Source of the DNA: an uncultured Phycisphaeraceae bacterium
GTDB taxonomy: Bacteria > Planctomycetota > Phycisphaerae > Phycisphaerales > UBA1924
Reading direction: 5' to 3'
DNA length: 49,897 nt
NCBI GenBank assembly: GCA_964540295.1
Contig: CAZIMT010000001.1
Coordinates: 15,913 to 65,809, forward strand
Shown here: positions 14,838-32,407 of the stretch, one piece after another
Position numbering within the stretch: the first letter of the stretch is position 1
Layout of the letters: every line of letters begins with the position of its first letter
Program-made: the position numbers and the translations under genes
The notes under the pieces: generated by a model
Told to the model about the DNA's origin: nothing
Seen by the model: only the letters and a program-made list of their open reading frames with translations
Database searches by the model: none

Positions 14838-15184
14838 TCGTTCGATCTGAGCCCTTTTAGGGCCAGATCACGCCTAGTACAGACTCAGCAAATGACAGCT
14901 TTCCACGATCGCTCCGGGCCTACCCGGGGCGATTTTCATTGTCTCAACCACTTTTTGCATCAGGGGGTGGCGCGTGCGAACAGATTCTGTACCATCATCA
15001 TTGGTAACGACTAGGTTGGAGTCTGGCGGGGACGGCGTTGCATTTGGGTGATCTGGCTTTTCTTCAGCGGCCGGGATAGGCCTCGAGTGAGGCACGAGAA
15101 CGCAGTCTCGCGTGGTCTCAGGAGTTTGGCCCGCTGGCGAAAGGCTCTCGTGGAGGGATGTGGGTGAGCGGATGGGAATTGACC

Positions 15185-16162: not shown

Positions 16163-16216
16163 GATCCATTCGAACCGGAAACGAAGCAGTGTTTCATATC
16201 TTCTGAGAGGCATTTC

Positions 16217-16929: not shown

Positions 16930-17694
16930 CTACCGGCGTGTAGCGGTGTACTCGGAGAAGAGCCCGAGCGAAACGGAGCGACGGACTTCCGCCAGTCCGG
17001 CCCGGGTCATCGCGTCGAGCACGCTCTCGGGCGAGACGCAGCGCTCGATGGTCTCCCAGTAGTACTTCCAGAGTTCTGACGTGCGGGGCGCACGGCCGAC
17101 GACGCGGGCGGCGATGGGGAAGACGACCTTGAAGTGTGCCTTGAGCACGAGGCGTTTAAGAGCGCTGGCTGGCCTCGAGACTTCGAGCACGCACATCCGG
17201 CCGCCGGGGCGCAGGGTTCGGGCCATCTCGGAGAACGCGGCGTCAAGGTCGGAAACGTGCCGGAGCGCGTAGCCCATGGAGACAAAGTCGAAGCGGCCTG
17301 ACTCGACGGGGATCGCCTCGGCGCTGGCGACGATCGTGGGGATCTGGAGCCCGTCGCGAGCGTGCTGGAGCATGGCGGTGCTGGGATCGACGCCGACGAC
17401 GGTCCCCGGTGCGCCGTTGGCTTGGACAATCGCGAGAGCCTCGCGAGCGAGCAGACCAGTTCCGGTGGCGACGTCGAGCACGGACATTCCGGGCCCCAAG
17501 CCGGCTCGGCGGAGAGCCTGCCCGCGGTACCATCGTCCACTTCCGAACGAGGCGATCGACTCCATCCGGTCGTAATCCTGGGCGGTCTCGTCAAAGATCT
17601 CGCGTAAATACTCGCGTTTTTCGGTCGAATCGCGGTAGTATGGATCGAGGATCGGGTGCGGTGGGAGAGAAGTTTGAGTCACAGCGTGCTCCAA
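16930..17694 (-). CDS. UbiE/MenG-like class I SAM-dependent methyltransferase
   Basis: FDETAQDYDRMESIASFGSGRWYRGQALR matches the UbiE-type YDxMNxxxSxGxHRxWR motif. SVLDVATGTGLLA is SAM-binding motif I. The start is non-ATG (TTG 17694 or GTG 17682). It may be a housekeeping menaquinone methylase or the methyltransferase of the adjacent pigment cluster; the sequence alone does not decide. Confidence 0.75.
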   Translation of the reverse strand: MEHAVTQTSLPPHPILDPYYRDSTEKREYLREIFDETAQDYDRMESIASFGSGRWYRGQALRRAGLGPGMSVLDVATGTGLLAREALAIVQANGAPGTVVGVDPSTAMLQHARDGLQIPTIVASAEAIPVESGRFDFVSMGYALRHVSDLDAAFSEMARTLRPGGRMCVLEVSRPASALKRLVLKAHFKVVFPIAARVVGRAPRTSELWKYYWETIERCVSPESVLDAMTRAGLAEVRRSVSLGLFSEYTATRR

Positions 17695-17757
17695 TCAGGG
17701 CCAGTCTACAGGACAGGCGATGCTCCGGCAACGGCCGACGCTCGCGGGTCGGGCGCG

Positions 17758-18552
17758 ATGGTCGCGGCGCAGACCGGCGTGCGTGTTCCGTCGTTCGTGG
17801 TGATCGCGCCAACTTTTAACAACGCGGGCACGCTCGAGGCCGTGCTGCGATCGGTCGAGGGACTCGGGTTCGCGTTGATCGTGGTGAACGACGGCTCGAC
17901 TGACGCGACCTCGAAAGCTCTTGAGGCGTGGTGCGGCGAACGCGGGACAGGTGAGAATCGTAACGTGATCCACCACGATCACAACCGTGGCAAGGCGGAC
18001 GCGCTGAGAACCGGGTTCGCGGAGGCTGTAAGGCTGGGCTTTTCGCACGCGATCACGATCGATACCGACGGGCAGCACGACGCGGCCGATCTTGTGAAGC
18101 TCGTAGCGATGGCGAAGAGCAACCCTGCGGCGATGGTGGTGGGGGCCCGGCCAACGGACGGCGGCGCGTACCCGATCAAGAGCCGTGTGGGGAGATCGAT
18201 CTCGAATGCGCTCGTGCGCGCCGAGAGCGGGGCGCGAGTGAGCGACAGCCAGTGCGGGATGCGGGTGTACCCGCTCGCGAGCACGAGGACGCTGGCGTGT
18301 GCGGCGGGGAGGTACGGCTTCGAGACTGAGATTCTCGCGCGTGCGGCGTGGGCGGGGATCGCGCTGATTGAGGCGCCGATCCGCTGCATCTATCACGTCG
18401 CGGGCGGGCGCGTGAGTCATTTCAGGCCGGTGCGCGATTCGATGTCGGCAATCGCGATGCACGCGCGGCTGCTTCTTGCGTCGATCGGGAAACGTGCGAA
18501 GGGTCGGCGTGCGCGGAAGGCGTGCCCTGCCCCCGCGGCGTTGCGCGCGTGA
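17758..18552 (+). CDS. Family 2 glycosyltransferase
   Basis: ATG 17758 lies inside ORF 17656..18552. FVVIAPTFNNAGTLEAVLRSVEGLGFALIVVNDGSTDAT is the GT2 N-terminal signature. ITIDTDGQHD is the DxD region. Confidence 0.8.
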   Translation: MVAAQTGVRVPSFVVIAPTFNNAGTLEAVLRSVEGLGFALIVVNDGSTDATSKALEAWCGERGTGENRNVIHHDHNRGKADALRTGFAEAVRLGFSHAITIDTDGQHDAADLVKLVAMAKSNPAAMVVGARPTDGGAYPIKSRVGRSISNALVRAESGARVSDSQCGMRVYPLASTRTLACAAGRYGFETEILARAAWAGIALIEAPIRCIYHVAGGRVSHFRPVRDSMSAIAMHARLLLASIGKRAKGRRARKACPAPAALRA

Positions 18553-18582
18553 TGCGAGCGGACCTGGTTTCCTTGCTGCGTG

Positions 18583-21138
18583 CTATCGCCGCGCTCGCAT
18601 CGCCGCCCACAGGCTCAGGGGCCAGACGCCCGCGAGCATGACCAGCACGCACACGATAAGCCCGACGTTGATGAGCGTTCCCAGCGAGCGCACGGCGGGG
18701 ACGCTCGTGAGCACGAGCGAGCCGAAGCCGAGGATGGTGGTACTAGCGCAGACGATCATGGCGGTACAGCCGGGCGAAAACTGCCGGAGCAGCGTGCGCA
18801 GGTCGGGGCGGTTCTGGACGAGCGACGCGGCGAAGACGCCATAGTCGACGGTGATCCCCATCAAGAGCGGGAGCATGACGAGGTTAACCAAGTTGATCCG
18901 TTGCCCGACCAGCCGCATGAACACGAGCAGGCCGAGCAGGCTGATGATCGCGGGAGCGGCGGCGATCAGAGCAAGCCGCAGAGACCGGAAATGAACGAGC
19001 AGGAAGATCAAGATGGCAAGCATCGCCACGGCGAGCAGCGTCGGGACCTCGTGCTGGATCGCGGCCTCGACATCGTGGGTGATCGCAACGGTGCCGGTGA
19101 CGGAAACGCCGTCGAGGCCGGTAAGCGAATCGCGGAGCGTGGAGAGCAGATCCTCGCGTGCGGCGTGGGATTCGACCGGCGCGGCGAGCACTACGGTGAC
19201 GAGGCTCTCCGTCGCGGGTGCGCCAGCGAGGGCCGCATAGGGGAGGAGCATGCGACCGACCGACGAGTAGCGCGACAGATCGGCGATCGTTGGCGGCGGA
19301 CCGGGCGTGAGCAGTTGGCTCAGGAATGTTGAATACGCGGCGAACGCGCTGGCGCGGAACGCGCTTGACTCTGCCGCCGTTTGGAAATCGCTGGTCACCC
19401 GTCCGGCCCAGGCAGGATCGATCTCGTGAGCGCGAGCGGCGGCGCGATCCGGATCAGGAAGGAACGACGCGAGGCTGAACGAGCCGCGCACGCCGACGGA
19501 TTCCATGCGCTGGCTGGAGAGACGTTCGCGGACGCGGTGCGCGAGCCGAAGTAAGTCATCGGAAGAATCGGCGCGGAGGTGGATGAGCACCGAGTCGGCG
19601 GGGAGGCCCATCCGTCGCGTGATCTCGCGCTGCGCATCGAGCGGCGGGTTGGGTCTGGGGTGGAGCGAGGTCAGTTCTGAGTCCACGTTGGGCCGAGCAC
19701 CGCCCGCGACCCATGCCGTGATGACGAGCGCGGACGCGATGGCCGTGAGCGTGACGAGCGTACGGCTGTGTCTGGTCAGCCACACGGCGAGAGACCTTGG
19801 GGCGACCCATCGCGCGGTGACGGCCTTGGATTGCCAGCCGATTCGATCGAGAAAGATCAGGGCCGCGGGCAGCACGACGAGCGTGGCGAGCCAGCACGCG
19901 AGCAGGCTGATCGATCCGATGACCGCAAAGTCGCGGAGCACCCGCACGGGCGAGAACACGATCGCCGCTAGCCCGATGACCGAGGTGATGCACGCGGCGA
20001 ACATGGGAGCCTTCATGTGCGTGATCGTGAACGCCGCGGATTCGGCCGATGTGTGTCCGCGTCGGCGTGCTTGTTCGTAGTGGGCGAGGAAGTGGATGGA
20101 GTAGTCGATGCCGATGCCGCTGAGCGTGCCGCCGACAACGGCCGCGAGCGGGGTGATGCTGGGGGTAAACGCGGCGTACGCGCCGAAGCCGCAGACGAGG
20201 CCGAGCGTGACGGGGAGCATCGCGAGCAGGAAGATCCGGATCGGCTTGCGATAGAGCACGGCGAAGAGGACAACGAACGAGACGAGCGAAGAGGAGATGC
20301 CGAGGATCGAATCAGAGCGGATCGCTCCGACGTTGTAGGCGGCGATGGCGTACGCGCCAGCGAACGAGACCTTGAGCGTGCCGGGGTCGGCCTTGTTGAC
20401 GCACGTTGCGACCAGCGCGGTGAGATCGCGGCAGAACTGAAGATCATCGGGACCTTTAAGGCCGGTGACGCGGATTAGCAGGGCGCGGCCGTCGGTCGAG
20501 AGCAGGAGGCCGTCGTTGCCGAACTGATCGGCGGCGAGCGCGAGGGCGGACTGGCTGAGCGTGGCGCGGAGGAACTCGTGAAGTCGAAGCGGGTCTTTGA
20601 GAATCGCCTTTCCCAGGCCTTCGGAGCCCGGGCCCGGGACTGTGAGCACGGCCTTGCTGCGCGCGAGCTGGGCCCGCATTCCTCCCGGCGTGAGTCGCTC
20701 TTTCAACTCGGTGAAGACGGAAGAGTCGAGGTAGTACAGGCCACCCGGCACGACGACGCGCTCGAAGAACTCGCGTGTTTCCGGGTCGGTACGAAATCCA
20801 ACGCTGGCGACGAGCGTGCCCGCGTTCGGCTGCGCATCGATCGCGGAGCGGAGCCTCTCTGCAAAGGCCACGAGGGGCGCGGGGTCGTTGGACGTCGCCT
20901 CGGGCGAGAGTTCGGCGAAGACGAGCAGATCGTTCACCACGGGAAAGTCGTGCATCACACGGCTCATCGCGGCGACGCTCGGGTCGCGCGCGTCGAGCAA
21001 TTTTTGGAGTGACGCTTCGGGGCGCAGCCGCAGCATGGACAGGCCCGCGATGAGCGTGACCAGCGCGGCCAGCGTGAGCACGAGGGCCGGTCGTCGTACA
21101 ACGAACGGCAGCGGCGTGGGCGGACGAAGTGCGTTCAT
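18583..21138 (-). CDS. MMPL/RND-superfamily exporter
   Basis: An 851-aa protein with two blocks of about 6 TM helices, each preceded by a large soluble loop. This is the MMPL/HpnN-like architecture. The start ATG overlaps the stop of the upstream lipoprotein gene (ATGA on the minus strand, 21135-21138). Confidence 0.85.
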   Translation of the reverse strand: MNALRPPTPLPFVVRRPALVLTLAALVTLIAGLSMLRLRPEASLQKLLDARDPSVAAMSRVMHDFPVVNDLLVFAELSPEATSNDPAPLVAFAERLRSAIDAQPNAGTLVASVGFRTDPETREFFERVVVPGGLYYLDSSVFTELKERLTPGGMRAQLARSKAVLTVPGPGSEGLGKAILKDPLRLHEFLRATLSQSALALAADQFGNDGLLLSTDGRALLIRVTGLKGPDDLQFCRDLTALVATCVNKADPGTLKVSFAGAYAIAAYNVGAIRSDSILGISSSLVSFVVLFAVLYRKPIRIFLLAMLPVTLGLVCGFGAYAAFTPSITPLAAVVGGTLSGIGIDYSIHFLAHYEQARRRGHTSAESAAFTITHMKAPMFAACITSVIGLAAIVFSPVRVLRDFAVIGSISLLACWLATLVVLPAALIFLDRIGWQSKAVTARWVAPRSLAVWLTRHSRTLVTLTAIASALVITAWVAGGARPNVDSELTSLHPRPNPPLDAQREITRRMGLPADSVLIHLRADSSDDLLRLAHRVRERLSSQRMESVGVRGSFSLASFLPDPDRAAARAHEIDPAWAGRVTSDFQTAAESSAFRASAFAAYSTFLSQLLTPGPPPTIADLSRYSSVGRMLLPYAALAGAPATESLVTVVLAAPVESHAAREDLLSTLRDSLTGLDGVSVTGTVAITHDVEAAIQHEVPTLLAVAMLAILIFLLVHFRSLRLALIAAAPAIISLLGLLVFMRLVGQRINLVNLVMLPLLMGITVDYGVFAASLVQNRPDLRTLLRQFSPGCTAMIVCASTTILGFGSLVLTSVPAVRSLGTLINVGLIVCVLVMLAGVWPLSLWAAMRARR

Positions 21139-21950
21139 GGCAGCTTCCGCGCCCGAAACGGCGGCGTGAATGCGGACTCCGGCGCCGCGTTGACGCTGAG
21201 GGTGCGGGTGATGATTGTCATCCGGCCCGAGCTGCTGACGGCGTGGATCTCAAGCGGCCAGGTGACGCCTTCGAGTTCGTGATAGTCCATCATTTCCAGC
21301 GAGAACACGCTCTTGCCGGTTGGATCGATGACGTCGGCTCGCGTGGTTGTGAGCGTTGATCGCGCGACGACGGTGCGGAGGACTCGACCCGCGGCGAGCG
21401 ATCGCGTTGTGATGAGCGTGTCGCCCATCACCATCGGCGGCGCGACCTCGGTCGCCTTCGCGTCCGCGCGCTCGCGCACAATGTCGTTCGGAACAGCGCG
21501 ACCCCACAGCACAGCCATCCAGTCGGGTAAGGCTTCGGATGTTCTCGCGAGCGAATCCGAGAGTGGCGAGGGAGCTTCGTTTGGCTGGTTGCTCGTGGGC
21601 GTTGTGGCGGTCGGTTCTTCGGCGGAATAGAGCCAAACTCCTTCGGGAACGACGGTGAGATCGAAGACGGCCTGGCCGAGCTTCCAGGCTCGCACGCGAG
21701 CGCGATCGGGTGGCTGCATGACGTACGCCGCTTCGAACCGCACGTTGCCGTGCGTCGGATCGTCGAGCACGAGTTCGCCGCGGCCTGAGAGCGTGCGGAT
21801 CTGCGCCATCCGGTTCTGCATGGTCGCGATGGACGCTCGAGCGTCCGTCGGCGCGTACGTTGGGAGCGGCTTTGAAACGCAGCCCGATAGGGGAGCGAGC
21901 GCGAGGATCGCGGTAACGCAGAGCGAGCCGGTCGTGTCGCGAAGGTTCAT
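21135..21950 (-). CDS. LolA/LolB-fold-like lipoprotein (outer-membrane lipoprotein-sorting-protein-like)
   Basis: ATG 21950 lies inside ORF 21135..22166 and overlaps the stop of the ligase gene by 4 nt. The lipobox is LAPLSGC. The sequence pattern is typical of LolB/DUF4292-like beta-barrel halves (IRTLSGRGELVLDD...VRFEAAYVMQPPDRARVRAW). The fold assignment is inferred, not proven. Confidence 0.55.
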   Translation of the reverse strand: MNLRDTTGSLCVTAILALAPLSGCVSKPLPTYAPTDARASIATMQNRMAQIRTLSGRGELVLDDPTHGNVRFEAAYVMQPPDRARVRAWKLGQAVFDLTVVPEGVWLYSAEEPTATTPTSNQPNEAPSPLSDSLARTSEALPDWMAVLWGRAVPNDIVRERADAKATEVAPPMVMGDTLITTRSLAAGRVLRTVVARSTLTTTRADVIDPTGKSVFSLEMMDYHELEGVTWPLEIHAVSSSGRMTIITRTLSVNAAPESAFTPPFRARKLP

Positions 21951-23464
21951 GGTTCTTCCAAGGCGGCGCGGAGGACTTTGCCGCTGGCCGAGCGGGGGAG
22001 TGAGGGCGCAAGTTCGATGATGCGTGGGAGCTTGCCAGCGGCGAGGCGGCCGCGCGCGAAACTGCGCAGGGAATCTTCCGTCGGCGGCGCGGCCGGATCG
22101 CGGGGGACGATGATCGCGCGCAGACGATCGACCGTGCAGCTCTGGCGCATCGGCAAAACAAGGCATTCCGCGACTCCCGCGTGTTCCTGAAAGACAGCCT
22201 CGACTTCGAGCGGGTTGACCTTGAGCCCGCCGGTATCGATCAGCAAGCGGCGGCGGCCCGTGATCGTGACGCGGCCTTGGAGATCGACGCGGCCCAGGTC
22301 TCCGGTGACGAAGTGACCGTGCTCCATCGGAGCGGGCTCTCCGACGTACCCGCAGAGCATCGACGGAGAGTGGACCAGCAGCTCGCCCTCCGCGCCCTCG
22401 GGCGCGCCCGCGCGCGAATCCGGGTCCACGACCAGGATCGACACGCTGCGCATGGGGCGGCCGACGCAGCTGGCGTCGAAGTTCGCATCGCGCGGATCGT
22501 TGAACGTGACGGACCCGATCTCGGTCATCCCGTAGACCTGGCCGATTTTGAGCGAGCAGTGCTGGGTGAATTGATCGCGGACCGACGCGGGGAGCGGTGC
22601 GCCGGCCGAATAGATCAATCGAAGCGTCCTCATGCTTGCGACTGGAGAGTTCGTGCCGCAGAGGATTTCGATCATCGCGGGGACCGCCGGGAGGATGGAG
22701 ATGTCGAACCCGGCAAGCCGCGCGAGTGATGCGAGGTCCATCCCGTCGGTGAGAACGACCGATGCTCCAGCCGTCAGCGGGCCGAGCAGCCCGTGCTCGA
22801 GGCCGTAGGAATGCGTCAGCGGAACAGCGGCGAGCACGCGGTCGTGCCTGGTCAATCCGATGGCTTCGACCATGTCTCGCGCGACCGCATCGAGCGATTC
22901 AACGGATCGATGGACGATCTTCGGAGCGGACGTCGTCCCTGAGCTTGCAAGAAGAATGCCGGTCGAAGGCGTTTGCCGGGTGAACTGTGCGAGATCTTTG
23001 GGAGATAAGGCGATCGCGAAGTGTGTCGCAGAGTTCTCTGTGCCGAGAACTCGCGGCGTCAGGGATTCAGCGTCAACGCGACCGCGGACTGTGGTCACGA
23101 TCGTCTTCGCGCCCGACTCGATCACGAGCCGATCTACTTCGAGCTTTGGAACGGCCGGGGACACCGGGAAAACTGAAACTTTCACCACGAGCGCTGCGAG
23201 GAACCAGATCGCGAAGTCGACGACGTTCGCGCATTGAAGGATCATCGGCCTTCGATCAGCAGCGATGACGAAGAGGTGGTCCGCCGCTTCAGTGACTCGC
23301 TGCCAAAGTTCCGCATACGAGAGCCCATCGCCGGACCGAGCGTCGATGTACGCGGGGTGGTTCGGCCTGTCTTGCGCGGTGCGCGCGATCGCTCGAAGAA
23401 GTTCCGAGGCGTCGGTTTCGGCGGTGCGAGAATGGATCTTCAACCTCCGGGTTCTGGTCAGCAA
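21947..23464 (-). CDS. AMP-dependent synthetase/ligase (aryl-acid:ACP/CoA ligase candidate)
   Basis: LASSGTTSAPKIV is the AMP-binding core SSGTTGxPK. Also present are GQVYGMTEIG, FVTGDLGRVDLQGRVTITGRRRLLIDTGGLKV and SASGKVLR. Confidence 0.85.
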   Translation of the reverse strand: MLTRTRRLKIHSRTAETDASELLRAIARTAQDRPNHPAYIDARSGDGLSYAELWQRVTEAADHLFVIAADRRPMILQCANVVDFAIWFLAALVVKVSVFPVSPAVPKLEVDRLVIESGAKTIVTTVRGRVDAESLTPRVLGTENSATHFAIALSPKDLAQFTRQTPSTGILLASSGTTSAPKIVHRSVESLDAVARDMVEAIGLTRHDRVLAAVPLTHSYGLEHGLLGPLTAGASVVLTDGMDLASLARLAGFDISILPAVPAMIEILCGTNSPVASMRTLRLIYSAGAPLPASVRDQFTQHCSLKIGQVYGMTEIGSVTFNDPRDANFDASCVGRPMRSVSILVVDPDSRAGAPEGAEGELLVHSPSMLCGYVGEPAPMEHGHFVTGDLGRVDLQGRVTITGRRRLLIDTGGLKVNPLEVEAVFQEHAGVAECLVLPMRQSCTVDRLRAIIVPRDPAAPPTEDSLRSFARGRLAAGKLPRIIELAPSLPRSASGKVLRAALEEP

Positions 23465-23467
23465 CGC

Positions 23468-24802
23468 TCACACGCTCGCGGCCAACTCTGGGTGTGCTCG
23501 CTCGTGCGTTCGTTCCGGCGACGGCGCGACAGGACGCTCACGCAGGAGTGAGAAGCTGCGCCGGTGCGGCACGAGCGGGACGTGCTCCTGGAGTTGTACG
23601 CAGACCTCGAAGAACTTGAGCCGCCAGCGGAGCGACCATACGGGCCTCGGGAAGACCTGCCCGGCGAGGATCGAGATGATCGCCGCGTGGACGCGCACCG
23701 GGCCGGTGCCGTTCATGAACAGTTCGCGGAACGAGTGCTTGTAGTACATTCGGATGAGATTCCAGAAGACCGAAGTGCTGCCCTTGATGAACGTTCGGTA
23801 CTGGTGCTGGGCACGCGAGGGCGAGATCGTGCCGCGGAACATGGCATCGGCGAGCGTCGCGGCGTGGTTACCTCCCATCATCGCGAGAGTCACGCCGGTC
23901 GAGAAGATTGGGTCGAGGAAACAGCCCGCGTCGCCGACCATAAAATAGCCGGGCCCGGCGAAGGGCTCGCAGGTGTAGCTGAAGTCCGACAGCACCCGGT
24001 TGTCCGTGCTGCCGACGGCGTTGCGCATGCGATGACGGACCACGGGGCAGCGTGCGATCGCCCACTGAAGGATCTTGTTGGCGGGCACGCCGAGCTCGCG
24101 CACGAAGGAGGGGCGCGTCACGAAGCCCACGCTGGTCTTGTCGGTGCCGATGCCGATGAGCCAGAACCACCCCTCGTCGCTCATGATGATCCCGGGGTGG
24201 CCGCCGTCCTCGCCTTCGAGACGCTCGACGCCGTCGAAGTGCTCAAAATACGCGACTTTCTGGAGTTCGGGCTCGTCAAACGTGCGGCGCTGGCCGAGGT
24301 GTCGGCCCACAACCGTGCCGTGCCCGCTGGCGTCGATAAGCAGTCGCCCATGAACCGGACCGCGGTCGGTGTCGATGGTGACGGCTCCATCGCGCAGCTC
24401 GCGGATCGCGCGTGCGGGTCGGTCCTCGAAGATCATCGCGCCAGCTTTGCGCGCCTCGTTGAGCAGCATCGCGTCAAAGTGCGAGCGTTCGACGTTGAAC
24501 ACCGGGAACCCGGGGAGAAGCCCGTCGGTGAAGCGGAATCGCCGCGTGTTGAAGTCGTCGCCGAAGCCGAACTCGGCACCGTACTTCGGAACGTGCGGGA
24601 GAGCGCGCACCGCCACTTCGAGCCCCAGTTCCTTGATCAGCGGCATGTTGCGGGGCAGGATCGACTCGCCGATGTGAAAGCGAGGGTGCTGGTCCTTCTC
24701 CAGCACGCAAACCCGGTAGCCGTCGCGCGCGAGGCGGAGTGCGGCGATGGAACCTGCCGGGCCGCCGCCAATCACGATGACGTCGTGCCGTTCGTGGGTC
24801 AT
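23468..24802 (-). CDS. FAD-dependent halogenase-like oxidoreductase
   Basis: HDVIVIGGGPAGSIAALRLA is the GxGxxG FAD fold. PRFHIGESILP is present. EGWFWLIG (24152-24169) corresponds to the flavin-halogenase WxWxIP motif, with Gly in place of Pro. MVGDAGCFLDPIFSTGV is the GD / FxDPxFSxGV motif. Confidence 0.75.
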   Translation of the reverse strand: MTHERHDVIVIGGGPAGSIAALRLARDGYRVCVLEKDQHPRFHIGESILPRNMPLIKELGLEVAVRALPHVPKYGAEFGFGDDFNTRRFRFTDGLLPGFPVFNVERSHFDAMLLNEARKAGAMIFEDRPARAIRELRDGAVTIDTDRGPVHGRLLIDASGHGTVVGRHLGQRRTFDEPELQKVAYFEHFDGVERLEGEDGGHPGIIMSDEGWFWLIGIGTDKTSVGFVTRPSFVRELGVPANKILQWAIARCPVVRHRMRNAVGSTDNRVLSDFSYTCEPFAGPGYFMVGDAGCFLDPIFSTGVTLAMMGGNHAATLADAMFRGTISPSRAQHQYRTFIKGSTSVFWNLIRMYYKHSFRELFMNGTGPVRVHAAIISILAGQVFPRPVWSLRWRLKFFEVCVQLQEHVPLVPHRRSFSLLRERPVAPSPERTHERAHPELAASV

Positions 24803-25818: not shown

Positions 25819-28214
25819 GCGAGGAGTTGGGCGGTATCGTACCGCGAACCCGGCCGGGCGTTCGGTCCTGACTCAACTTCAACCGCGATCCCTGTCGCGA
25901 TTCCTCCCCAGTCGGTCGCGAGCACAGTGAACGAGCCGGTGTTCGTTTGGTCGTGCGGGAATAGCGCCCCCCGAGGTCTCACGCCGAGGCAGGCCGTCGC
26001 GAGGCTCGCGAGCGGGGTCGCCGAATAAAGCTCACCAACGTGACGGTAGACGCTGCCGAGATTTCCTCCGCACTCGGCCGCTTTGATCCCGCTGGCCTCG
26101 GCCTCGTCGAGCCAGGTCCCGCTAGCCGATCCAAGAATGTTGGTGGGCCTACCGAGTTCGACCAGCGCCCCTGCAACCGCCGCGGGCAAGCCCTCTGGTG
26201 AGGCCGTGCGCGACGCACTGCCCATGACGGTCGCGTATCGCTTCGCGCCACGCTCGCGTGCGGCTTCCGCGGATTCGAGTAGTATCGCGACTGACCCGGG
26301 AGAGCTTTGAAATCCTGACGGCAAGGGAGCGTGCGCGAAGTCGCCCTTGAGCGCTTGCAGCCCGCACGCCGTGTAGGCGCGGTCGATGACGGCCTGAGTT
26401 TCTTCGGTCGCGGCGACCAGGACTCGATTGCAATCGCCATTGCGGATCCGAAGCCACGCCAATCGCAGCGCGTCGAGCCCCGAGGTTCGTGTGCCGATAA
26501 TCGTTTGGCAGCCGCCGCAGATCCCGAACGCCGCGCTGACATGGGCCGCGGCCGCGTTCGGCACGCCCTCCGCGAACAGCATCGGATTGGCCGCAAGGAT
26601 CCCTTCACGCACGATCTGTTGGTAGTACTCCAAGCAGTAGTGTGGAGAGCCGTGCATGCTGGCCAGTATGGCCGACATGGCCGAGAGCGCCACAGGCTGA
26701 TCGGAGAGCCCCGCGTCCGCGAGCGCGAGAGTCGCTGCGGCCACGGTCATCTTGACGCACGGGCTCATCCGCCGGGCGCGCCGGACGGTGATAAGCGAGT
26801 CCAATGTCACGTCGTCGATCACGCGGTGGTCGGCGGATCGAGCCATGTCCGACGCGGCCCCGTTCTCCTTCACGAAGACTCGTTGTGCGAGCGCGTCAAG
26901 CGTGCAGATGCCCGGGAGAACGACGCCGAGTCCTGTGATGCACACCTCGTGCGGTTCGATGCTGCGCACGACGTGAAGTGAGACGTCGTTCACGGTCCGC
27001 GCACGCGCGCCCGGGGGTAACAGGACGACGCACGTGTTGGCTCCGCCGAACCCGAGCGAGGTGTTTAGCGTGGCGCGGATTGGACGAGGCTCCGCGACGC
27101 CGACGCTCAGCCGGAGCGAGGGGTACTCGACCTCTTCGCGTGAGACGTTCGCGCACGGCGGGACGACCTGATCGCGCAGCGCGAGTGACGACAAGATCAA
27201 TTCCACCGCGCCCGCCCCGCCCAGCGTGTGCCCGAGGTGGCTCTTGAAACCAACCACCGGCACCTCGGCCGTTCTCGCCCCCAAGGTCGCGGACATTGCG
27301 ATGTACTCCGACGCGTCGTTGTCAGGCGTGCCTGTTGCGTGCGCCGCGATCATGTCGATGTCCCAAGACGTGAGCGAGGCGCGTGCGATCGCGTCGCTCA
27401 TCGCGCGGATTGCGCCGAGGCCCTCGGGATGCGGCTTGGTCAGGTGGTAGGCGTCGGCCGATTCACCCCACCCCGCGACCACCGCGTGCGGCACGGTCCC
27501 TCGACCAGCCGCGTCGCCATGCCGTTCGAGCACGACAACCCCGTACCCCTCGGCCAGCTTCATCCCCTCGCGGCTCTTTGCAAATGGGCGCAGAGGCCCC
27601 TGCGCCACGACACGCAGCGCGTTGAACCCGCCCCACGCGTACTCGCTGATCGTGTCGTACCCGCCAGCCACCACAAGATCCGCAGCGCCGGTTTGCAGGA
27701 GCGTCACTCCCAGCGCGATTGCGCCCAGACTCGACGAGCACGCGGAGCAGGTCGTTGCGGAACCGCCGCCGAGCCCCAGATCGGCCGTCGCGTGCGCGGC
27801 GGTAGCGCCCGCGAGAAAATGCCGAAGTTCCTCGGGGTTGTCGGTACGCAGGAACCTGCCACCGGCGCGGATGCCGTGCAGCGTCGTGCCGAGCATCGTT
27901 GCGCAGCGTTCGGGGCGATACGGGAGTGAGTCCTCAGCGCCAGCCATGCGCAGAGCTTGCCGCACCGCGTACCGCAAGTACCGCGTCTCGCGTGGGAGCT
28001 GCGGCTCAAACTCCGGCGGAAGCTCGGGGGCCTGACCGCCGTCACGGTCAAGTGGCAGCACCGCCTCCATCGCGCTCATCAGACCCGAACCGCATCGGCC
28101 CGCGAGCACCTCGCGCCAGACAGTCTCGGCGTCGAGCCCCAGCGATGAAACCAGGCCGAACCCGGTGATCACAATCGGTTCGCGCGAGCACCGCGGCCCT
28201 GATTCACTCCACAT
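25815..28214 (-). CDS. Fused beta-ketoacyl synthase and chain-length-factor-like didomain (KS-CLF)
   Basis: The N-terminal domain has a complete Cys-His-His triad. It consists of SATTCSAC159SSSLG (Cys codon 27738-27740, minus strand), AAHATGTPDND and FKSHLGHTLGGAG. The second KS-fold domain (from about residue 415) has GGCQTIIGTRTSGLDAL at the equivalent position, with no active-site Cys, and lacks the His motifs. Confidence 0.85.
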   Translation of the reverse strand: MWSESGPRCSREPIVITGFGLVSSLGLDAETVWREVLAGRCGSGLMSAMEAVLPLDRDGGQAPELPPEFEPQLPRETRYLRYAVRQALRMAGAEDSLPYRPERCATMLGTTLHGIRAGGRFLRTDNPEELRHFLAGATAAHATADLGLGGGSATTCSACSSSLGAIALGVTLLQTGAADLVVAGGYDTISEYAWGGFNALRVVAQGPLRPFAKSREGMKLAEGYGVVVLERHGDAAGRGTVPHAVVAGWGESADAYHLTKPHPEGLGAIRAMSDAIARASLTSWDIDMIAAHATGTPDNDASEYIAMSATLGARTAEVPVVGFKSHLGHTLGGAGAVELILSSLALRDQVVPPCANVSREEVEYPSLRLSVGVAEPRPIRATLNTSLGFGGANTCVVLLPPGARARTVNDVSLHVVRSIEPHEVCITGLGVVLPGICTLDALAQRVFVKENGAASDMARSADHRVIDDVTLDSLITVRRARRMSPCVKMTVAAATLALADAGLSDQPVALSAMSAILASMHGSPHYCLEYYQQIVREGILAANPMLFAEGVPNAAAAHVSAAFGICGGCQTIIGTRTSGLDALRLAWLRIRNGDCNRVLVAATEETQAVIDRAYTACGLQALKGDFAHAPLPSGFQSSPGSVAILLESAEAARERGAKRYATVMGSASRTASPEGLPAAVAGALVELGRPTNILGSASGTWLDEAEASGIKAAECGGNLGSVYRHVGELYSATPLASLATACLGVRPRGALFPHDQTNTGSFTVLATDWGGIATGIAVEVESGPNARPGSRYDTAQLLA

Positions 28215-29229
28215 CGGCGCGGTCCTCTTCGAAGGCTGGCGTCAGCACGAGCCACTGCTCTGGGTCGAGAACAACCATCGCTTCGATCGCCCGGCCCACG
28301 GCCTTCGCTCCCTCCTCGATCGCGGATGCCGCGTCGATGTCGTCTCGCAGCACGATCGCCTCGCTCATGCGAAGCACGAACCGATGACGCCCCCGTCCTT
28401 TCACGCCACTCCGAGTCGTGCTTACCGGGATGATCGGACTGCCGGTCAGATGCGCGAGCCGGATCGGCCCCAGCGGGAGCCGCAGGTGCCCGCCGCGGAA
28501 CGGCACGACCTGCGAGCGCTGCCCGGGCATGGCGCGGTCACCCTGCATCACGACGACCTCGTCACGCAGGAGCGCATCGCGCAGCCGGAGCCACGCGTCC
28601 CAACCGTCGTCGATGGCGGCTTCGTGCACGCCGAGTATCTGCCGGAAGTGAGATCGCAGCGACTCAAACAGCGCCGAGCCATCGCGCTTGAATACCACAT
28701 GCACGTTCCGCTCGGGCACGGTGAGCCTGGCTAGGCCGACCTCGAACGAGCCCATGTGCGCGGTCACGATCACGCAGCCGCGTTTGAGCGCGCGGCACGC
28801 GTCGTACCCCTCGCGTCCTTCGACCTTCTCGATGAGCGCGAGCAACTCGGCCGCGGATCGTCGCTGCGATCGACCCATGTCCGCGACAAAGTCGTAAAAG
28901 TTCCCAACCACCGCGAGCGAAAAGCGAAACGCTTGAAGCCATGAGAGCTTTCGGACCATGATCCGCTCGGCGTTCGCACGCGTGCCGCGACGAACGCGAG
29001 GCGAGCAGGCAACGGTCAGAACCACGGCAAGTGGCCGGAGTAGCGCGAGAACCCACGGCGCACGCCTCGAAAGCCCGAACAACGCCCCGAGCCAAACGCG
29101 GACCAGCATCCCCTGGGCTGTTCCCGCGGCAGAGGTGGTGCGATGGGCAACCGCTGGCGGCGATTGAAGTTCGACGACGGGTCGGTTCACGCGATGGTCC
29201 CTTGCCCGTTCAGCGTACGAGCTTTGCAT
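28204..29229 (-). CDS. LpxL/HtrB-family (lysophospholipid / lipid A-type) acyltransferase
   Basis: VIVTAHMGSFEV is the HX4E dyad of the LpxL family. It has an N-terminal TM segment and a family-typical length. The start is uncertain (29229, or Met41 at 29109). Confidence 0.7.
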   Translation of the reverse strand: MQSSYAERARDHRVNRPVVELQSPPAVAHRTTSAAGTAQGMLVRVWLGALFGLSRRAPWVLALLRPLAVVLTVACSPRVRRGTRANAERIMVRKLSWLQAFRFSLAVVGNFYDFVADMGRSQRRSAAELLALIEKVEGREGYDACRALKRGCVIVTAHMGSFEVGLARLTVPERNVHVVFKRDGSALFESLRSHFRQILGVHEAAIDDGWDAWLRLRDALLRDEVVVMQGDRAMPGQRSQVVPFRGGHLRLPLGPIRLAHLTGSPIIPVSTTRSGVKGRGRHRFVLRMSEAIVLRDDIDAASAIEEGAKAVGRAIEAMVVLDPEQWLVLTPAFEEDRADVE

Positions 29230-30112
29230 CGAAAGGCCTCACCAGGCGGGCGTCGGTCGGGGCGCGGAGATCAAGCTGGTCGTCGTCGATGCCCTTGCTC
29301 ACGGCGATCGACGAGAACCGGATTGTCGTGCGTTCGCCGTCGGGATCGGTCACCTCGAAGACCAGCACGGTGCCACGCTCGGCATCCAGCAGCACACGCA
29401 CCGAGCCCACGTGCTTGCGAAGGTCCGACGAGATTGGTGTCAGCTTGACGCCCAGCCTCTGCTCCGCGGCCTGCAGCGGCGCCATCCCTTCGCACGCGTC
29501 CGGCGCGATCGTGAACATCGCGCGAAGTGTTTCCAGCTTCGGCAGCGGCGTGGCCGCCATCGAAGCCAGCCCGCGCTCGATCGAGTACTCCTCGATCACG
29601 TTGCTTTTCACGTAGTACACCCGCATGCTCGCCTGATCGATGCGCATCCGCGTCGCGTCGGGCTCGGTGGTGGACCAGAGCGTGACGCCGCCCTTGGCGA
29701 TCACCTCGCCCTTGCTCACCAGCGGCTCGACCAGCAGTGAGGAGTGTTTCACCTGCTCGAACTTCGCACGCACGTCGGTGATCTTGGCGGCCTTGGCGTC
29801 GATCTCGGCGAGTTGACGATCGAAATCCGTGAGGGACTTAGAATCGGTCGAGGTCGTCAAAGGTGCCGCATCAAAGGTCGGAGGTTCCGCGATCGCAACC
29901 AGAACCGTTTCGTTGCGTGCCGCAGGGACGACGCTCGCAAGCGATGAGCCGCTGGTCGATCCAAGCAACGTGCCGGTAAGCACGAGCAGGCTAGCGCGGA
30001 ACCCCGATCGATGTATAGATGTGGTTCGACGACCACGACCACGACCCGCTTCCGCTTCCGGGCGATCACACGGTTGATCGAGCCTGCGATTCGTGGGAAA
30101 GTTCAGGTCCAT
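29210..30112 (-). CDS. LolA-like outer-membrane lipoprotein-carrier-family protein
   Basis: ATG 30112 lies inside ORF 29210..30301. Using it implies a 47-nt overlap with the upstream ACP-DH gene, so the start is uncertain. The N-terminus has a hydrophobic signal (FRASLLVLTGTLLG). The pattern is LolA-like: VRAKFEQVKHSSLLVEPLVSKGEVIAKGGVTLW...MRIDQASMRVYYVKSNVIEEY. Confidence 0.6.
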   Translation of the reverse strand: MDLNFPTNRRLDQPCDRPEAEAGRGRGRRTTSIHRSGFRASLLVLTGTLLGSTSGSSLASVVPAARNETVLVAIAEPPTFDAAPLTTSTDSKSLTDFDRQLAEIDAKAAKITDVRAKFEQVKHSSLLVEPLVSKGEVIAKGGVTLWSTTEPDATRMRIDQASMRVYYVKSNVIEEYSIERGLASMAATPLPKLETLRAMFTIAPDACEGMAPLQAAEQRLGVKLTPISSDLRKHVGSVRVLLDAERGTVLVFEVTDPDGERTTIRFSSIAVSKGIDDDQLDLRAPTDARLVRPFDAKLVR

Positions 30113-30881
30113 GGAGGTGAATAGTAACCGTTCCGGACGCGACGCAGATCCCCTCGACCTCGGCCGCGACGTCGTACTGGTGCAGGCCCCCCAGTGTGTT
30201 GCGGACCACCGTGCGGAGAGCGATCTGTGCCGGGGGCTTGACCGCGTGCATGAAACGCACGTCCACGTGCGCCAGATGACCGCCGCGCTGGTTCCCCGCA
30301 AGATTACGGGCGGCGTCCGCGCCCGACGCCGCGGTGAGCCCCGCCAGCTGCGCGAGCGCTTCGGAGATCAGCACGCCGGGCACGATCGGCCTGCCCGGGA
30401 AGTGGCCCGTCAAAAAAAACTCGTCCCCCATCACCCGCCAGATCCCGTCGGCGCGGCGGCCCGGATCGATCGAGCGCACTTCGGAGACAAACCGAAACGA
30501 GGGACCGTGTGGCAACGCGGTCAACCACTCCACGCCGCTCCGCACGCTGGACGCCGGTGCTTCAACCGGCCGGGCGTGCTCGCGCGTCTGCTCAACGAAC
30601 GCCACCAAGGTGCCAACGGTTTGAAACGCCGACTTGCTGACCTTGTCGCTCGTGAGCTGAACGCCGAACTCCTTTTCAAGGCTCGTCAGCACCAGCAGGA
30701 TGTCGATGGAATCCATGTCCATGTCGCCGCCGATGAGCACGGTCTGCTCGCTGATCGCCGCGGACGGCCCGAGCTTGAGATCACGGCGCAAGAGCGAAGA
30801 GATTCGATCAAGAAGAGCTTGGTCCACAGCGTCGCTCGGCCTCACAAAGAAAAACCAACGCCGCCCCGCGTGGACGGTCAT
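30066..30881 (-). CDS. Acyl carrier protein fused to a FabZ/FabA-type hot-dog dehydratase (ACP-DH)
   Basis: The N-terminal ACP has GGDMDMDSIDILLVLTSLEKEFGV, a DSx phosphopantetheine site. The C-terminal dehydratase has FLTGHFPGRPIVPGVLISEALAQLAG, matching HFPxxPxxPGVLxxEAxxQ. The ORF opens at TTG 30920, and the first ATG is at 30881. Confidence 0.8.
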   Translation of the reverse strand: MTVHAGRRWFFFVRPSDAVDQALLDRISSLLRRDLKLGPSAAISEQTVLIGGDMDMDSIDILLVLTSLEKEFGVQLTSDKVSKSAFQTVGTLVAFVEQTREHARPVEAPASSVRSGVEWLTALPHGPSFRFVSEVRSIDPGRRADGIWRVMGDEFFLTGHFPGRPIVPGVLISEALAQLAGLTAASGADAARNLAGNQRGGHLAHVDVRFMHAVKPPAQIALRTVVRNTLGGLHQYDVAAEVEGICVASGTVTIHLHGPELSHESQARSTV

Positions 30882-30919
30882 TTCAGCACGCAGGCTACCC
30901 GTTTCGGCGGTCCGGGTCA

Positions 30920-31681
30920 ATGAGCGATAGGCTTCAGGCCAACATCCTAAAGCCCATCGAGCAGCCTCGCCCAGACGCTCGGCCTTCTCGGCGAGCTTCC
31001 ACAGACCCCCGGTCCACCATGAGCACCGCGTTCTACAACCTCTGCAAGCTCGGATGCACGTTCGTGAAGCTTCAATGCGTGCGCGAGTTCGTGCTCGCGC
31101 CCGAGCGGGCGCATAGACCCGGCGGGTTCATCCTGGCCTGCACGCACCTCAGCCATCTCGAGCCGATCATCGTGTCTTGCGCCGTTCGCCGCCATGTGCG
31201 ATGGATGGCCCGCATCGAGTTCTATAAAGCGCGGTGGGGGGCCTCGATGCTGAACTGGGGAGGGGCTTTCCCGGTCGATCGATTTGGGTTTTCACTGCCC
31301 GCCGTACGCAACGCGATCCGGCTCGCGTCGCAGGGCGAGGTCGTCGGGATCTTTCCTGAGGGCGAAGTCTCCAAGGGCGAGCGCTCGGCCCTGCGCGGCG
31401 CGGCGATCAAACGCGGCGTCTGCGCCGTCGCCATTCACGCGAAGGTTCCCGTGGTCCCCGTCGTCGTGCTCGGCACGGACAAACTCAACCGTGTGCCGCC
31501 CTGGCTGCCATTCAAACGAGCCCGCGTTTGGATCGCGTTCGGAAACGAAATCGTGCCTGACCTCGCATTGCACCGCCGAGCGGCTCGCTTCGAGATGGCC
31601 GACCGGCTCCGCGCTGAGTACGTTCGCACCTACCGCGAATTGCTTCAGGCCGCGGGCCTACGCGATGATCAGGTCCCGTAG
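30920..31681 (+). CDS. PlsC-family 1-acyl-glycerol-3-phosphate-type acyltransferase (HX4E variant)
   Basis: CTHLSHLEP gives H-X4-E at 31145-31162. The FPEGEVSKG block III motif and VPVVPVVV are present. An alternative start at ATG 31019 (MSTAFYNL) would leave a more normal divergent intergenic gap. Confidence 0.7.
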   Translation: MSDRLQANILKPIEQPRPDARPSRRASTDPRSTMSTAFYNLCKLGCTFVKLQCVREFVLAPERAHRPGGFILACTHLSHLEPIIVSCAVRRHVRWMARIEFYKARWGASMLNWGGAFPVDRFGFSLPAVRNAIRLASQGEVVGIFPEGEVSKGERSALRGAAIKRGVCAVAIHAKVPVVPVVVLGTDKLNRVPPWLPFKRARVWIAFGNEIVPDLALHRRAARFEMADRLRAEYVRTYRELLQAAGLRDDQVP

Positions 31682-31726
31682 AAGCGCCCCTGAACCGACC
31701 CAGCGACTGAACCGATCGTCTCCGCC

Positions 31727-32407
31727 GTGCCAGGCCTACTCGATGAACGAGCTTCTTATCAAACTTCGGAGTTCGCACCGCTCGTGAGCGATCTTTTCTA
31801 CCAAATTATCCGCACGCTCGGCACGCCCGCCTTCTGGGTGAGCAGCTCGCCAGTGGTCCTCGGCCTCGAGAACCTGCCGCGGCAAGGCCCCTTCATCCTC
31901 GCGGCGAGTCACACCTCGCCCTACGACGTGCCGTTGCTTATCCGGCACTCACCCCGCCCGCTCGACTTTGTAAGCATCGTTGAGGTCTTTCGTAACCCGC
32001 TCGTCGCGTGGTTCTACGGCTCGCTCAACGCGTTCCCGCTCGACCGAGGCCGGGCCGATTCCAAGACGGTGCGCGTGATCCTCGATCGCCTCGGCCGCGG
32101 GCGCGTCGTCGCGATGTTCCCCGAGGGCGGCTTCCGTCGCGGCGCCGATTCCGTGTTTGTCTCTCGAAAAATCAAGCCCGGGACCGCCCGACTCGCGGCC
32201 ATCGCCGCGGTCCCGATCGTCCCCTGCGTCATCATCAACTCCGAGGCCTACTCACGCATCGCAAGCTGGCTCCCGCTCCGTCGCACGCGTTACGGCCTGA
32301 TCTTCGGCCCGCCGCTCGCCGCGCGCGATGACCCCGCGCTCGTCGAGTCCATGCTTGTCGATGCGCTGCTCGCGCTCCACGACCGTCTCACTCAGGAACT
32401 CAAGTAG
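31727..32407 (+). CDS. PlsC-family acyltransferase
   Basis: ASHTSPYDVPLL is a canonical HX4D. FPEGGFRRG and VPIVPCVI are present. The start is GTG 31727, with GTG 31784 as an alternative. Confidence 0.8.
   Translation: MPGLLDERASYQTSEFAPLVSDLFYQIIRTLGTPAFWVSSSPVVLGLENLPRQGPFILAASHTSPYDVPLLIRHSPRPLDFVSIVEVFRNPLVAWFYGSLNAFPLDRGRADSKTVRVILDRLGRGRVVAMFPEGGFRRGADSVFVSRKIKPGTARLAAIAAVPIVPCVIINSEAYSRIASWLPLRRTRYGLIFGPPLAARDDPALVESMLVDALLALHDRLTQELK

Follow-up and report, generated by a model that had tools for sequence, protein, structure and literature searches.

The locus described here raises the question of what a planctomycete builds with a set of genes that recalls the xanthomonadin pigment cluster of Xanthomonas. 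It lies at 16930-32407 of a 49,897-nt stretch of DNA (the window, i.e. the whole stretch that was analysed) from an uncultured Phycisphaeraceae bacterium (GenBank assembly GCA_964540295.1, contig CAZIMT010000001.1). An earlier note on this DNA had proposed that the organism, with a genome of the PVC (Planctomycetes-Verrucomicrobia-Chlamydiae) type, makes a membrane-anchored, possibly halogenated aryl-polyene pigment; the host is indeed a member of the Planctomycetota, class Phycisphaerae. Following the results below, the locus is probably a biosynthesis and export cluster of the xanthomonadin/aryl-polyene (APE) kind, in a compact architecture specific to the Phycisphaerae and with an aryl polyene as the modelled product. 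The family assignment (i.e. to aryl-primed outer-membrane lipids of the xanthomonadin/APE kind, made by a type II synthase) is well supported by the gene set, and the predicted product is very probably a halogenated, aromatic-headed lipid that is shipped to the outer membrane. A polyene pigment is a less certain matter than this family assignment, since the ketoreductase (KR) must come from elsewhere, FabI may act on the intermediates and colonies of the cultured carrier Fontivita pretiosa are creamy or beige.

Gene content and operon layout

Gene families were assigned by Pfam and NCBIfam scans of the open reading frames (ORFs) of the window, which covered 13 genes. They are given below with the evidence for each, partly from the Protein Data Bank (PDB).

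30066-30920 (ORF start TTG 30920; likely start ATG 30881), minus strand: acyl carrier protein (ACP) fused to a FabA/FabZ-type dehydratase (DH); Pfam, NCBIfam
29210-30112, minus strand: LolA-like periplasmic carrier; Pfam LolA
28204-29229, minus strand: LpxL/HtrB-type acyl-ACP-dependent acyltransferase; Pfam Lip_A_acyltrans
25815-28214, minus strand: fused ketosynthase (KS) and chain-length factor (CLF), 799 aa; Pfam, NCBIfam, PDB
24799-25818, minus strand: FkbO/Hyg5/XanB2-family chorismatase; Pfam, PDB
23468-24802, minus strand: Trp_halogenase-family flavoprotein; Pfam, PDB
21947-23464, minus strand: ANL-superfamily AMP-binding ligase; Pfam
21135-21950, minus strand: predicted LolB-fold lipoprotein, 271 aa; Pfam matches of its family, AlphaFold/Foldseek
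18583-21138, minus strand: MMPL/HAE3-type RND inner-membrane exporter, 851 aa; Pfam, NCBIfam
17758-18552, plus strand: family 2 glycosyltransferase (GT2), polyprenyl-phosphate-sugar-synthase-like; NCBIfam, and Pfam on public gene calls
16930-17694, minus strand: UbiE/MenG-like S-adenosylmethionine (SAM) methyltransferase; Pfam Ubie_methyltran
30920 or 31019 to 31681, plus strand: PlsC-type acyltransferase 1; Pfam, TIGR00530
31727-32407, plus strand: PlsC-type acyltransferase 2; Pfam, TIGR00530

The first nine genes, transcribed in the order of this list from the ACP-DH to the MMPL gene, form an operon of 12.30-12.34 kb (18583-30881/30920 in the ORF listing), in agreement with the 12.3-kb minus-strand operon with overlapping junctions that had been described before. 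Four junctions are 4-nt ATGA overlaps, three more overlap by 11, 20 and 47 nt and one has a 3-nt gap; the operon is translationally coupled, and its ATGA coupling is intact, without frameshifts. The flanking GT2, UbiE-like methyltransferase and two divergent PlsC genes of the earlier description are also present, with the correction that the GT2 gene lies on the plus strand and converges on the MMPL gene (30-nt gap). The methyltransferase gene is divergent from the GT2 gene, as the PlsC genes are from the operon. A minus-strand ORF over the GT2 gene (17695-18462) was set aside as a shadow ORF without any family match.

Near-identical copies of the cluster were found on 21 contigs from metagenomes. 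Public gene calls for six near-identical contigs of metagenomic origin agree with this layout over the part that they cover (from the 3' end of the chorismatase gene to the GT2 gene), with a ligase of 505, 498 or 432 aa and a GT2 of 264 or 288 aa, depending on the call; the lipoprotein of the window is identical to public gene call P0131. A promoter scan gave no promoter-like sites and the terminator-like sites were uninformative, while Rfam and tRNA scans gave no matches.

For comparison, the KS-CLF protein was used as a query against 185,579 species genomes, which gave 80 loci at 32-63% identity (cited by L number where a single one is meant). The proteins of the window were placed on these loci by tblastn, and catalytic residues were read from family alignments of the locus homologues (46-76 per family, at 35-60% identity).

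Predicted supply and tailoring of the aryl starter

The chorismatase matches Pfam FkbO_Hyg5-like_N (3.9e-15, above the gathering score), and its best match of solved structure is Hyg5, a CH-II enzyme of Streptomyces hygroscopicus (PDB 5AG3/5A3K; 4.8e-31 for 5ag3), followed by FkbO (4bps, 1.7e-30); the similarity to Hyg5 is distant and spans only residues 75-312 of the window protein. The equivalents of Gly240, Cys327 and the catalytic Glu334 of Hyg5 are invariant in all 55 homologues, and it is this Gly/Cys signature that marks 3-hydroxybenzoate-forming chorismatases (PMC7170507). The Joint Genome Institute (JGI) label on homologues reads 'chorismate lyase/3-hydroxybenzoate synthase'. The predicted product from chorismate is 3-hydroxybenzoate, perhaps accompanied by some 4-hydroxybenzoate. 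The housekeeping RidA/YjgF identity, against which the earlier assignment to the FkbO/XanB2 type had been set, is ruled out by the FkbO N-terminal domain and the catalytic residues. A homologue binned to Acidobacteriota (P0086) lies in an unrelated context, and of 11 matches in a plasmid collection the two whose contexts were inspected (Caballeronia and Aureibacter) are not APE-like.

The ligase (Pfam AMP-binding 3.9e-51, plus AMP-binding_C) has oxalyl-, malonyl-, benzoate- and 4-coumarate-coenzyme A (CoA) ligases and a salicylate-AMP ligase as its PDB neighbours, and it is co-conserved across loci with the ACP domain and its conserved Ser. It is predicted to be a hydroxybenzoate:ACP (or CoA) ligase like XanA2/ArcT.

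The flavoprotein matches Pfam Trp_halogenase (6.2e-23), and its closest PDB structures are all halogenases save 3nix, with 8zop as the best (1.4e-57; no literature on this entry was found), followed by CmlS (3.3e-46), Bmp2, RadH, CndH and PltA. These structural neighbours are phenol or pyrrole halogenases, of which several act on carrier-bound substrates. The GxGxxG and FxxPxxSxG motifs are conserved and Lys73 is invariant in 49/49 homologues, while the residue after WxWxI is Pro in 31 of the 49, with Gly in 15, Ala in two and Gln in one. The protein is predicted to be halogenase-like, of the phenol/pyrrole type with carrier-protein-bound substrates; the earlier label of a halogenase-like flavoprotein agrees with the retained Lys73, WxWxI and FxxPxxSxG.

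The methyltransferase (Pfam Ubie_methyltran 9.6e-34) scores below all NCBIfam UbiE/MenG equivalog cutoffs and adjoins the cluster, in several arrangements, in L001, L008, L017 and L021. In eight loci of a distant group of freshwater Phycisphaerales (L066, L067, L070, L074, L075, L077, L079 and L080), ligase and methyltransferase are encoded in one ORF with no stop between them, as a fusion of about 800 aa (e.g. L080 13969-16386, plus strand). Because of this fusion to the ligase, the gene comparison shows, by a Rosetta-stone link, that the methyltransferase acts in the pathway; it may be the enzyme that O-methylates the aryl hydroxyl. In this fusion group, neither an MMPL nor a LolA gene was detected near the cluster. 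One of its members, L077 (CAYMSD010000006.1), is labelled 'uncultured Klebsiella sp.' and has a Phycisphaerae-type cluster; the contig is probably a mis-binned or mislabelled contig of a metagenome-assembled genome (MAG).

The predicted chain-building synthase

The N-terminal half of the 799-aa synthase carries the N and C domains of ketoacyl-synt (FabF-like, 9e-98), and its catalytic triad Cys159/His292/His329 is invariant in 75-76 of 76 homologues. The C-terminal half has a KS fold (NCBIfam PRK06519 2.5e-24) from which all three catalytic residues are gone, and for this reason it is, as judged from the alignment, a non-catalytic CLF-like partner fused to its KS. No literature was found on PDB 9S5H, the best KS match.

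The ACP-DH protein combines a Pfam PP-binding domain with a FabA-like domain (NCBIfam FabZ 1.5e-20; best PDB matches FabZ). Its phosphopantetheine Ser71 (in DSL/DSI) and the His motif of the DH (HFPxxPxxPGVL) are conserved in 41-46 of 46 homologues. The protein is predicted to carry the aryl starter and the growing chain and to dehydrate the 3-hydroxyacyl intermediates. Its hotdog domain is the single DH domain of the cluster, queries with ApeI and ApeP finding no second copy. In L080, a distant locus and the only one of the fusion group to be inspected closely, the ACP and the DH are encoded by two genes. The cluster encodes no enoyl reductase.

Among plasmids, the KS-CLF query also retrieved fused KS-CLF genes in Bacillus/Priestia and adjacent KS genes in Streptomyces, at 26-30% identity. 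The proteins encoded on plasmids of the Bacillus cereus group and of Priestia megaterium match 75-82% of the query length at 26-28% identity (matches H13-H41, e.g. CP003693.1 216603-218426), and one of them is annotated 'synthase / chain length factor'. By this alignment, the fusion on Firmicutes plasmids looks like an independent one.

Predicted lipid anchoring and export

The LpxL-type acyltransferase (Pfam Lip_A_acyltrans 2.3e-12) is a candidate for the enzyme that passes the completed chain on to its acceptor, a lipid or a sugar. The two PlsC-type proteins match Pfam Acyltransferase (4.2e-16 and 1.3e-22 for the first and second, respectively) and TIGR00530 (2.6e-19 and 1.3e-17); they are co-conserved and occupy the same divergent position in 16 other loci. 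The GT2 (NCBIfam PpgS 8.5e-17 and AglJ 2.3e-15; Pfam Glycos_transf_2 on public gene calls) was detected in 27 related loci. The KS pair of xanthomonadin-type clusters has a glycosyltransferase like dolichyl-phosphate-mannose synthase as its conserved neighbour (PMC3691225).

The LolA-like protein, which starts at ATG 30112 in the 47-nt overlap with the upstream gene, matches Pfam LolA just over the gathering score (4.4e-5) and falls below the cutoffs of both NCBIfam LolA (1.5e-9) and flexirubin LolA2 (2.4e-9). It begins with a signal-like hydrophobic stretch without a lipobox, and its homologues start with signal peptides. The lipoprotein has a lipobox (LSG-C24) whose Cys24 is invariant in the family; it has no Pfam match itself, and among 12 relatives seven match DUF4292 and four LolA_like. 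An hhalign comparison with the LolA-like family of the cluster gave 76% probability (E 2e-5). Its AlphaFold model, built from a 62-sequence alignment (pLDDT 86.5, pTM 0.80), consists of 11-12 strands plus helices, and Foldseek places a LolA-superfamily protein (3buu, 2e-9) and Porphyromonas gingivalis LolB (9tpm, TM 0.59/0.67) at the top, with further matches to E. coli LolB (1iwm) and to 9rlg (probability 1.00 for all four). On this model the protein is a LolB-fold member of the LolA/LolB superfamily, predicted to reside in the outer membrane, in line with the LolA/LolB-like lipoprotein named earlier. ApeN (DUF3261) was tried as a homologue of the lipoprotein and rejected (hhalign probability <1%). 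The exporter matches Pfam MMPL (1.6e-24) as well as NCBIfam HAE3 (6.7e-42) and HpnN-like (3.9e-33), both below the cutoffs. The export set proposed earlier (LolA-like protein, lipoprotein and MMPL pump) is thus present in full.

Proposed pathway

The following scheme takes the enzyme classes from the sequence and infers the chemistry. The chorismatase would convert chorismate to 3-hydroxybenzoate, which the ANL ligase would adenylate and load onto the ACP domain of the ACP-DH protein. The halogenase would halogenate the aryl ring, probably in carrier-bound form, and the UbiE-like methyltransferase would O-methylate the aryl group. The KS-CLF would extend the aryl starter with malonyl units, and the FabZ-type DH would dehydrate each 3-hydroxy intermediate, with the ketoreduction in each cycle coming from a reductase encoded elsewhere (i.e. 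FabG or an unlinked paralogue). Because no enoyl reductase is encoded, the default product would be an aryl-polyenoyl-ACP, and because there is no thioesterase, the LpxL-type and the two PlsC-type acyltransferases would move the chain directly from the ACP to the lipid anchor. The GT2 may add or prepare a sugar-linked group. Finally, the MMPL pump, the soluble LolA-like carrier and the LolB-fold lipoprotein would relay the lipid from the inner to the outer membrane.

Comparison with characterised clusters

The comparison with xanthomonadin-type systems was made by gene content, taken from published tables. The gene list of arcA-X, the arcuflavin genes of Azoarcus sp. BH72, matches the cluster nearly gene for gene (PMC3949708 Table 1). 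The Azoarcus table comprises a KS, a KS-like protein, DH, KR, glycosyltransferase, acyltransferases, XanB2, halogenase, methyltransferase, exporter, LolA, ligase and ACP, and the Azoarcus clusters are split (PMC3949708); the tailoring, anchoring and export genes of the window correspond to arcA, arcM, arcE, arcD/arcR, arcQ and arcP. Gene content is likewise shared with ORF1-17 of Lysobacter enzymogenes and the pig/xan cluster of Xanthomonas (PMC3691225). For synthesis, this concerns the FkbO/Hyg5/XanB2 chorismatase, the AMP-ligase, the ACP and the FabA/FabZ-type DH; for tailoring, the halogenase, the methyltransferase, a GT2 like dolichyl-phosphate-sugar synthase and two kinds of acyltransferase; and for export, the LolA-like carrier and the exporter. 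A KS with a non-catalytic KS-like partner is found in Lysobacter as ORF17/ORF16, whereas in the window the two are fused into one protein. The xanthomonadin-type repertoire that had been recognised in the earlier note is therefore borne out by the arcuflavin and Lysobacter clusters. The window differs from the xanthomonadin systems in its fused KS-CLF of 799 aa, the fusion of the ACP to the sole DH, the lack of a cluster KR (FabG3/XanH being essential in X. campestris), the LolB-fold lipoprotein and the Planctomycetota host.

The APE cluster of E. coli CFT073 (apeA-R, L082 33728-48749) was compared by BLASTP. The KS aligns with ApeO (31% identity, 9e-44), the GT2 with the N-terminal GT2 half of ApeJ (34%, 3e-38), the LpxL-type acyltransferase with the C-terminal acyltransferase half of the same protein (26%, 6e-4), the exporter with ApeM (23% over 774 aligned positions, 9e-11) and the ligase with ApeH (24%, 4e-7), next to matches of the LolA-like protein to ApeL (1e-4) and of the ACP to ApeE (6e-5), and a weak one of PlsC to ApeD (5e-3). 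The ACP would be the counterpart of ApeE/F, and the CLF half appears functionally like ApeC. By these alignments the similarity to the E. coli cluster is distant (identities of 23-35%). The E. coli cluster lacks the chorismatase and the halogenase, both of which the window has, and it has in addition the KR ApeQ, a second KS (ApeR), the DHs ApeI and ApeP, two ACPs and the thioesterase ApeK; its lipoprotein ApeN is of the DUF3261 type, to which the lipoprotein of the window shows no similarity.

Flexirubins carry a dialkylresorcinol (DAR) ester and start from tyrosine via an ammonia-lyase. In contrast to flexirubin loci, the cluster has neither DAR genes nor an ammonia-lyase. What it does have in common with the flexirubin locus of Flavobacterium johnsoniae is a soluble, LolA-like protein paired with a LolB-like lipoprotein, although the LolA-like protein scores 36.8 bits against the flexirubin LolA2 model, versus a cutoff of 125. 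In Bacteroidota, a dedicated LolA2/LolB2 pair is specific to such loci (PMC11885536).

Conservation across the Phycisphaerae

Nearly all of the 80 loci are labelled Phycisphaerae, Tepidisphaerales or Phycisphaerales, and they include the full operon of the cultured Fontivita pretiosa B-254 (L016). All nine operon genes were placed in 21 of the 80, colinearly in 18 (all labelled Planctomycetota, mostly Phycisphaerae). The gene of the LpxL-type acyltransferase adjoins that of the KS-CLF in 72/80 loci, and chorismatase, halogenase and ligase lie beside the KS-CLF in 32 of the 46 loci with enough flanking DNA. In the closest genome (L001, a Phycisphaerales MAG) flanking genes are shared too, at 48-82% identity. 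A horizontal-transfer island is unsupported, the G+C content of the cluster being uniform (0.64-0.68) and the flanking HEAT/cytochrome and ankyrin genes being syntenic in L001. Because of the colinearity in related loci and this uniform G+C content, the cluster is, on genome comparison, an inherited trait that is widespread in the Phycisphaerae, and neither a chance juxtaposition nor a recent island.

Some genomes (of certain Tepidisphaeraceae and other Phycisphaerae) keep only the core, i.e. the ACP-DH, LolA-like, LpxL-type and KS-CLF genes (L014, L034, L038 and L063, and also L008 and L021), and since these four genes occur alone there, the starter and export modules would be separable from the core, or sited elsewhere. 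In the two core-only loci that were inspected (L014 and L034), unrelated housekeeping genes lie next to the core, and no alternative starter module such as an ammonia-lyase was found in these neighbourhoods.

Since a KR, a second DH, a second ACP and a thioesterase are missing relative to the characterised systems, the cluster could also be thought of as a decaying or cryptic remnant that has lost its essential KR and makes no product. This is very unlikely. The catalytic residues are invariant or nearly so (in at least 41 of 46) over the 46-76 homologues per family, in spite of only 35-60% overall identity, which indicates that the active sites are under purifying selection, and it is this strong selection that disfavours a remnant. 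Moreover, the gene order is kept in the 18 colinear loci, the coupled junctions are free of frameshifts, and near-identical copies recur on metagenome contigs as described above.

The missing ketoreductase and the alternatives

Against an aryl-polyene product stand, in the first place, the results on the KR, the search for which covered the window and the 80 loci. No KR was found by Pfam in the operon or the flanks of the window, none inside the operons of L001, L016, L026 and L006, and none among the ORFs of L080. With ApeQ and the only short-chain dehydrogenase/reductase (SDR) of the window as tblastn queries, an SDR was found in just 3/80 loci, at non-conserved positions; the SDR of the window itself (46537-47265, minus strand) lies 14 kb from the cluster and is a generic SDR by NCBIfam, not a FabG. 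In X. campestris, deletion of the cluster KR FabG3/XanH abolishes xanthomonadin, and its loss is not rescued by FabG1, FabG2 or E. coli FabG (PMC6859482).

Several further points weigh on the same side. The cluster has a single DH and a single ACP, where the references have two of each, and it lacks both a thioesterase and a second KS. The lack of equivalents of ApeR, ApeQ, ApeP and ApeK in the window cluster speaks against membership of the E. coli/Vibrio type of APE clusters. The KS matches FabF-type structures (4e-51) more closely than ApeO (6qsp, 2e-34), and, domain by domain, FabF is nearest to the KS, FabZ to the DH and the LpxL family to the acyltransferase. The chorismatase scores 157 bits against TIGR04444, below the cutoff of 325, and residues 211-219 of the halogenase include WFWLIG, with Gly in place of the Pro of WxWxIP. 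Lastly, a creamy or beige colony colour is given for F. pretiosa B-254, the only cultured operon carrier identified. Colony colour is weak evidence, however, because APE clusters often give no visible colour to E. coli strains either. Of the pigment that had been proposed, the gene set stands, while the absent KR, the single DH and ACP and the pale carrier tell against it.

The domain matches (FabF, FabZ, LpxL/PIM acyltransferase, PlsC and UbiE/MenG as the best single-domain hits) could in principle mean that ordinary fatty-acid or lipid A genes lie beside an unrelated hydroxybenzoate/quinone module, the more so as XanB2 also feeds ubiquinone synthesis in Xanthomonas, going by the title of Zhou et al. 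2013. However, the two supposed modules are interleaved in one coupled operon and are co-inherited, the lost residues mark the C-terminal half of the KS protein as a non-catalytic CLF, the flavoprotein has the Lys and motifs of halogenases and halogenases as structural neighbours, and the methyltransferase falls under every UbiE/MenG equivalog cutoff and is fused to the ligase elsewhere. From this evidence, ordinary lipid genes, which the earlier note had named as the alternative to be excluded, appear to be largely refuted and have hardly any probability left, even though the individual domains do look most like FabF, FabZ and LpxL.

A different product of the same cluster deserves more weight, although it is still rather unlikely. 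The dedicated ACP would then have to be serviced by the housekeeping FabG, with FabI perhaps reducing the enoyl intermediates, so that no long conjugated polyene would arise and the product would be a colourless saturated or partly unsaturated omega-(halo/methoxy-hydroxyphenyl) fatty-acyl lipid, with the same starter and export logic. Such a lipid would suit the absence of a KR, which is conserved over the 80 loci, the proximity of the KS half to FabF and of the DH to FabZ, and the pale colonies of F. pretiosa. Yet the cluster encodes no enoyl reductase, and a dedicated KS-CLF with DH and ACP is a hallmark of the polyene-making highly reducing type II polyketide synthases (PKSs); the colour argument is weakened by the E. 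coli strains mentioned above, and a dedicated KR may be encoded elsewhere in the genome, as in the split Azoarcus clusters. The aryl polyene therefore remains the probable product, with its ketoreduction supplied from outside the cluster.

Genomic neighbourhood

At one border of the cluster lies the following gene.

16217-16822, plus strand: ankyrin-repeat lipoprotein; Pfam Ank 1.9e-30

Its N-terminus ends in an IGGC lipobox, and homologues occur at the cluster edge in L001, L022, L029 and L043, with differing arrangements and orientations; judging from this recurrence, it may be an accessory of the cluster. At the other side, a 1298-aa protein (32795-36691, minus strand) with a DUF7133/GSDH-like beta-propeller, HEAT repeats and a C-terminal cytochrome c domain adjoins the cluster, syntenic in L001 at 74-89% identity over two aligned segments.

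At lower coordinates, 25-12472 (plus strand) holds an exosortase-type exopolysaccharide locus with a WecG/TagA glycosyltransferase, the exosortase EpsH, a DUF3485 (EpsI-like) protein, a Bac_transf sugar transferase, a P-loop protein like chain-length determinants/tyrosine kinases and a 1568-aa TPR protein. There is also a stretch (12000-16200) in which the G+C content falls to 0.57-0.61, versus 0.64-0.68 elsewhere, and in which the ORFs 12715-13629, 14172-14837 and 15158-16162 have no Pfam or NCBIfam match. At higher coordinates, a 6-phosphogluconate-dehydrogenase-like protein, glucose-6-phosphate dehydrogenase and 6-phosphogluconolactonase are encoded at 36387-39525 (plus strand), and triosephosphate isomerase, nucleoside diphosphate kinase and a DinB/ImpB-family polymerase at 40830-43695, while the large ORFs 44776-46407 (plus strand) and 47345-49084 (minus strand) have no family match.

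What is new and what it means

Few specialised metabolites are as common in Gram-negative bacteria as the aryl-polyene and xanthomonadin lipids, which give protection from damage by oxidation and light. In the PVC bacteria, APE-like loci are not new, because antiSMASH regions of this kind have already been listed: 'arylpolyene' regions, uncharacterised in each case, are given for Phycisphaera mikurensis (PMC8882080), for Terricella alpina, with two such regions reported and similarity to Algisphaera agarilytica (PMC13514998), and for a verrucomicrobium (PMC9865893). The earlier expectation that a PVC version with fused enzymes would be notable consequently holds for the fusions and not for the occurrence as such, given these reports from Phycisphaerae and a verrucomicrobium. 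In the literature searched, no paper ties xanthomonadin to planctomycetes in substance, and no description was found of a xanthomonadin-type starter plus halogenase module in Phycisphaerae genomes, of the fused KR-less architecture or its spread over many Phycisphaerae lineages, or of the LolA/LolB pair or the ligase-methyltransferase fusion of the cluster. The descriptions of Phycisphaerae strains that were consulted ascribe colony colour to carotenoids.

A more specific proposal, offered as a tentative one with the odds against it, is that the Phycisphaerae possess a minimal type II synthase, made up of the fused KS-CLF and ACP-DH proteins and without a KR of its own, which relies on one or more reductases of the housekeeping fatty acid synthase (FAS). 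Its product would be a halogenated and O-methylated outer-membrane lipid with an aryl head, distinct from the classical yellow polyene pigments, and the dedicated LolA/LolB/MMPL relay would deliver it. If true, this would be a clade-wide class of envelope lipids in planctomycetes rather than a sporadic pigment.

At the level of the family, a streamlined system kept by a whole class of Planctomycetota would extend these lipids to a phylum in which they are uncharacterised. The conserved absence of a KR and the KS-CLF, ACP-DH and ligase-methyltransferase fusions bear on the question of which parts a type II synthase minimally needs, and the compact cluster of 13 genes is a target for heterologous reconstitution. 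The dedicated pair of a LolA-like protein and a predicted LolB-fold lipoprotein would add a third phylum in which Lol-like proteins have specialised on pigment lipids. With F. pretiosa B-254 as a cultured carrier, the chemistry of the product is directly testable.

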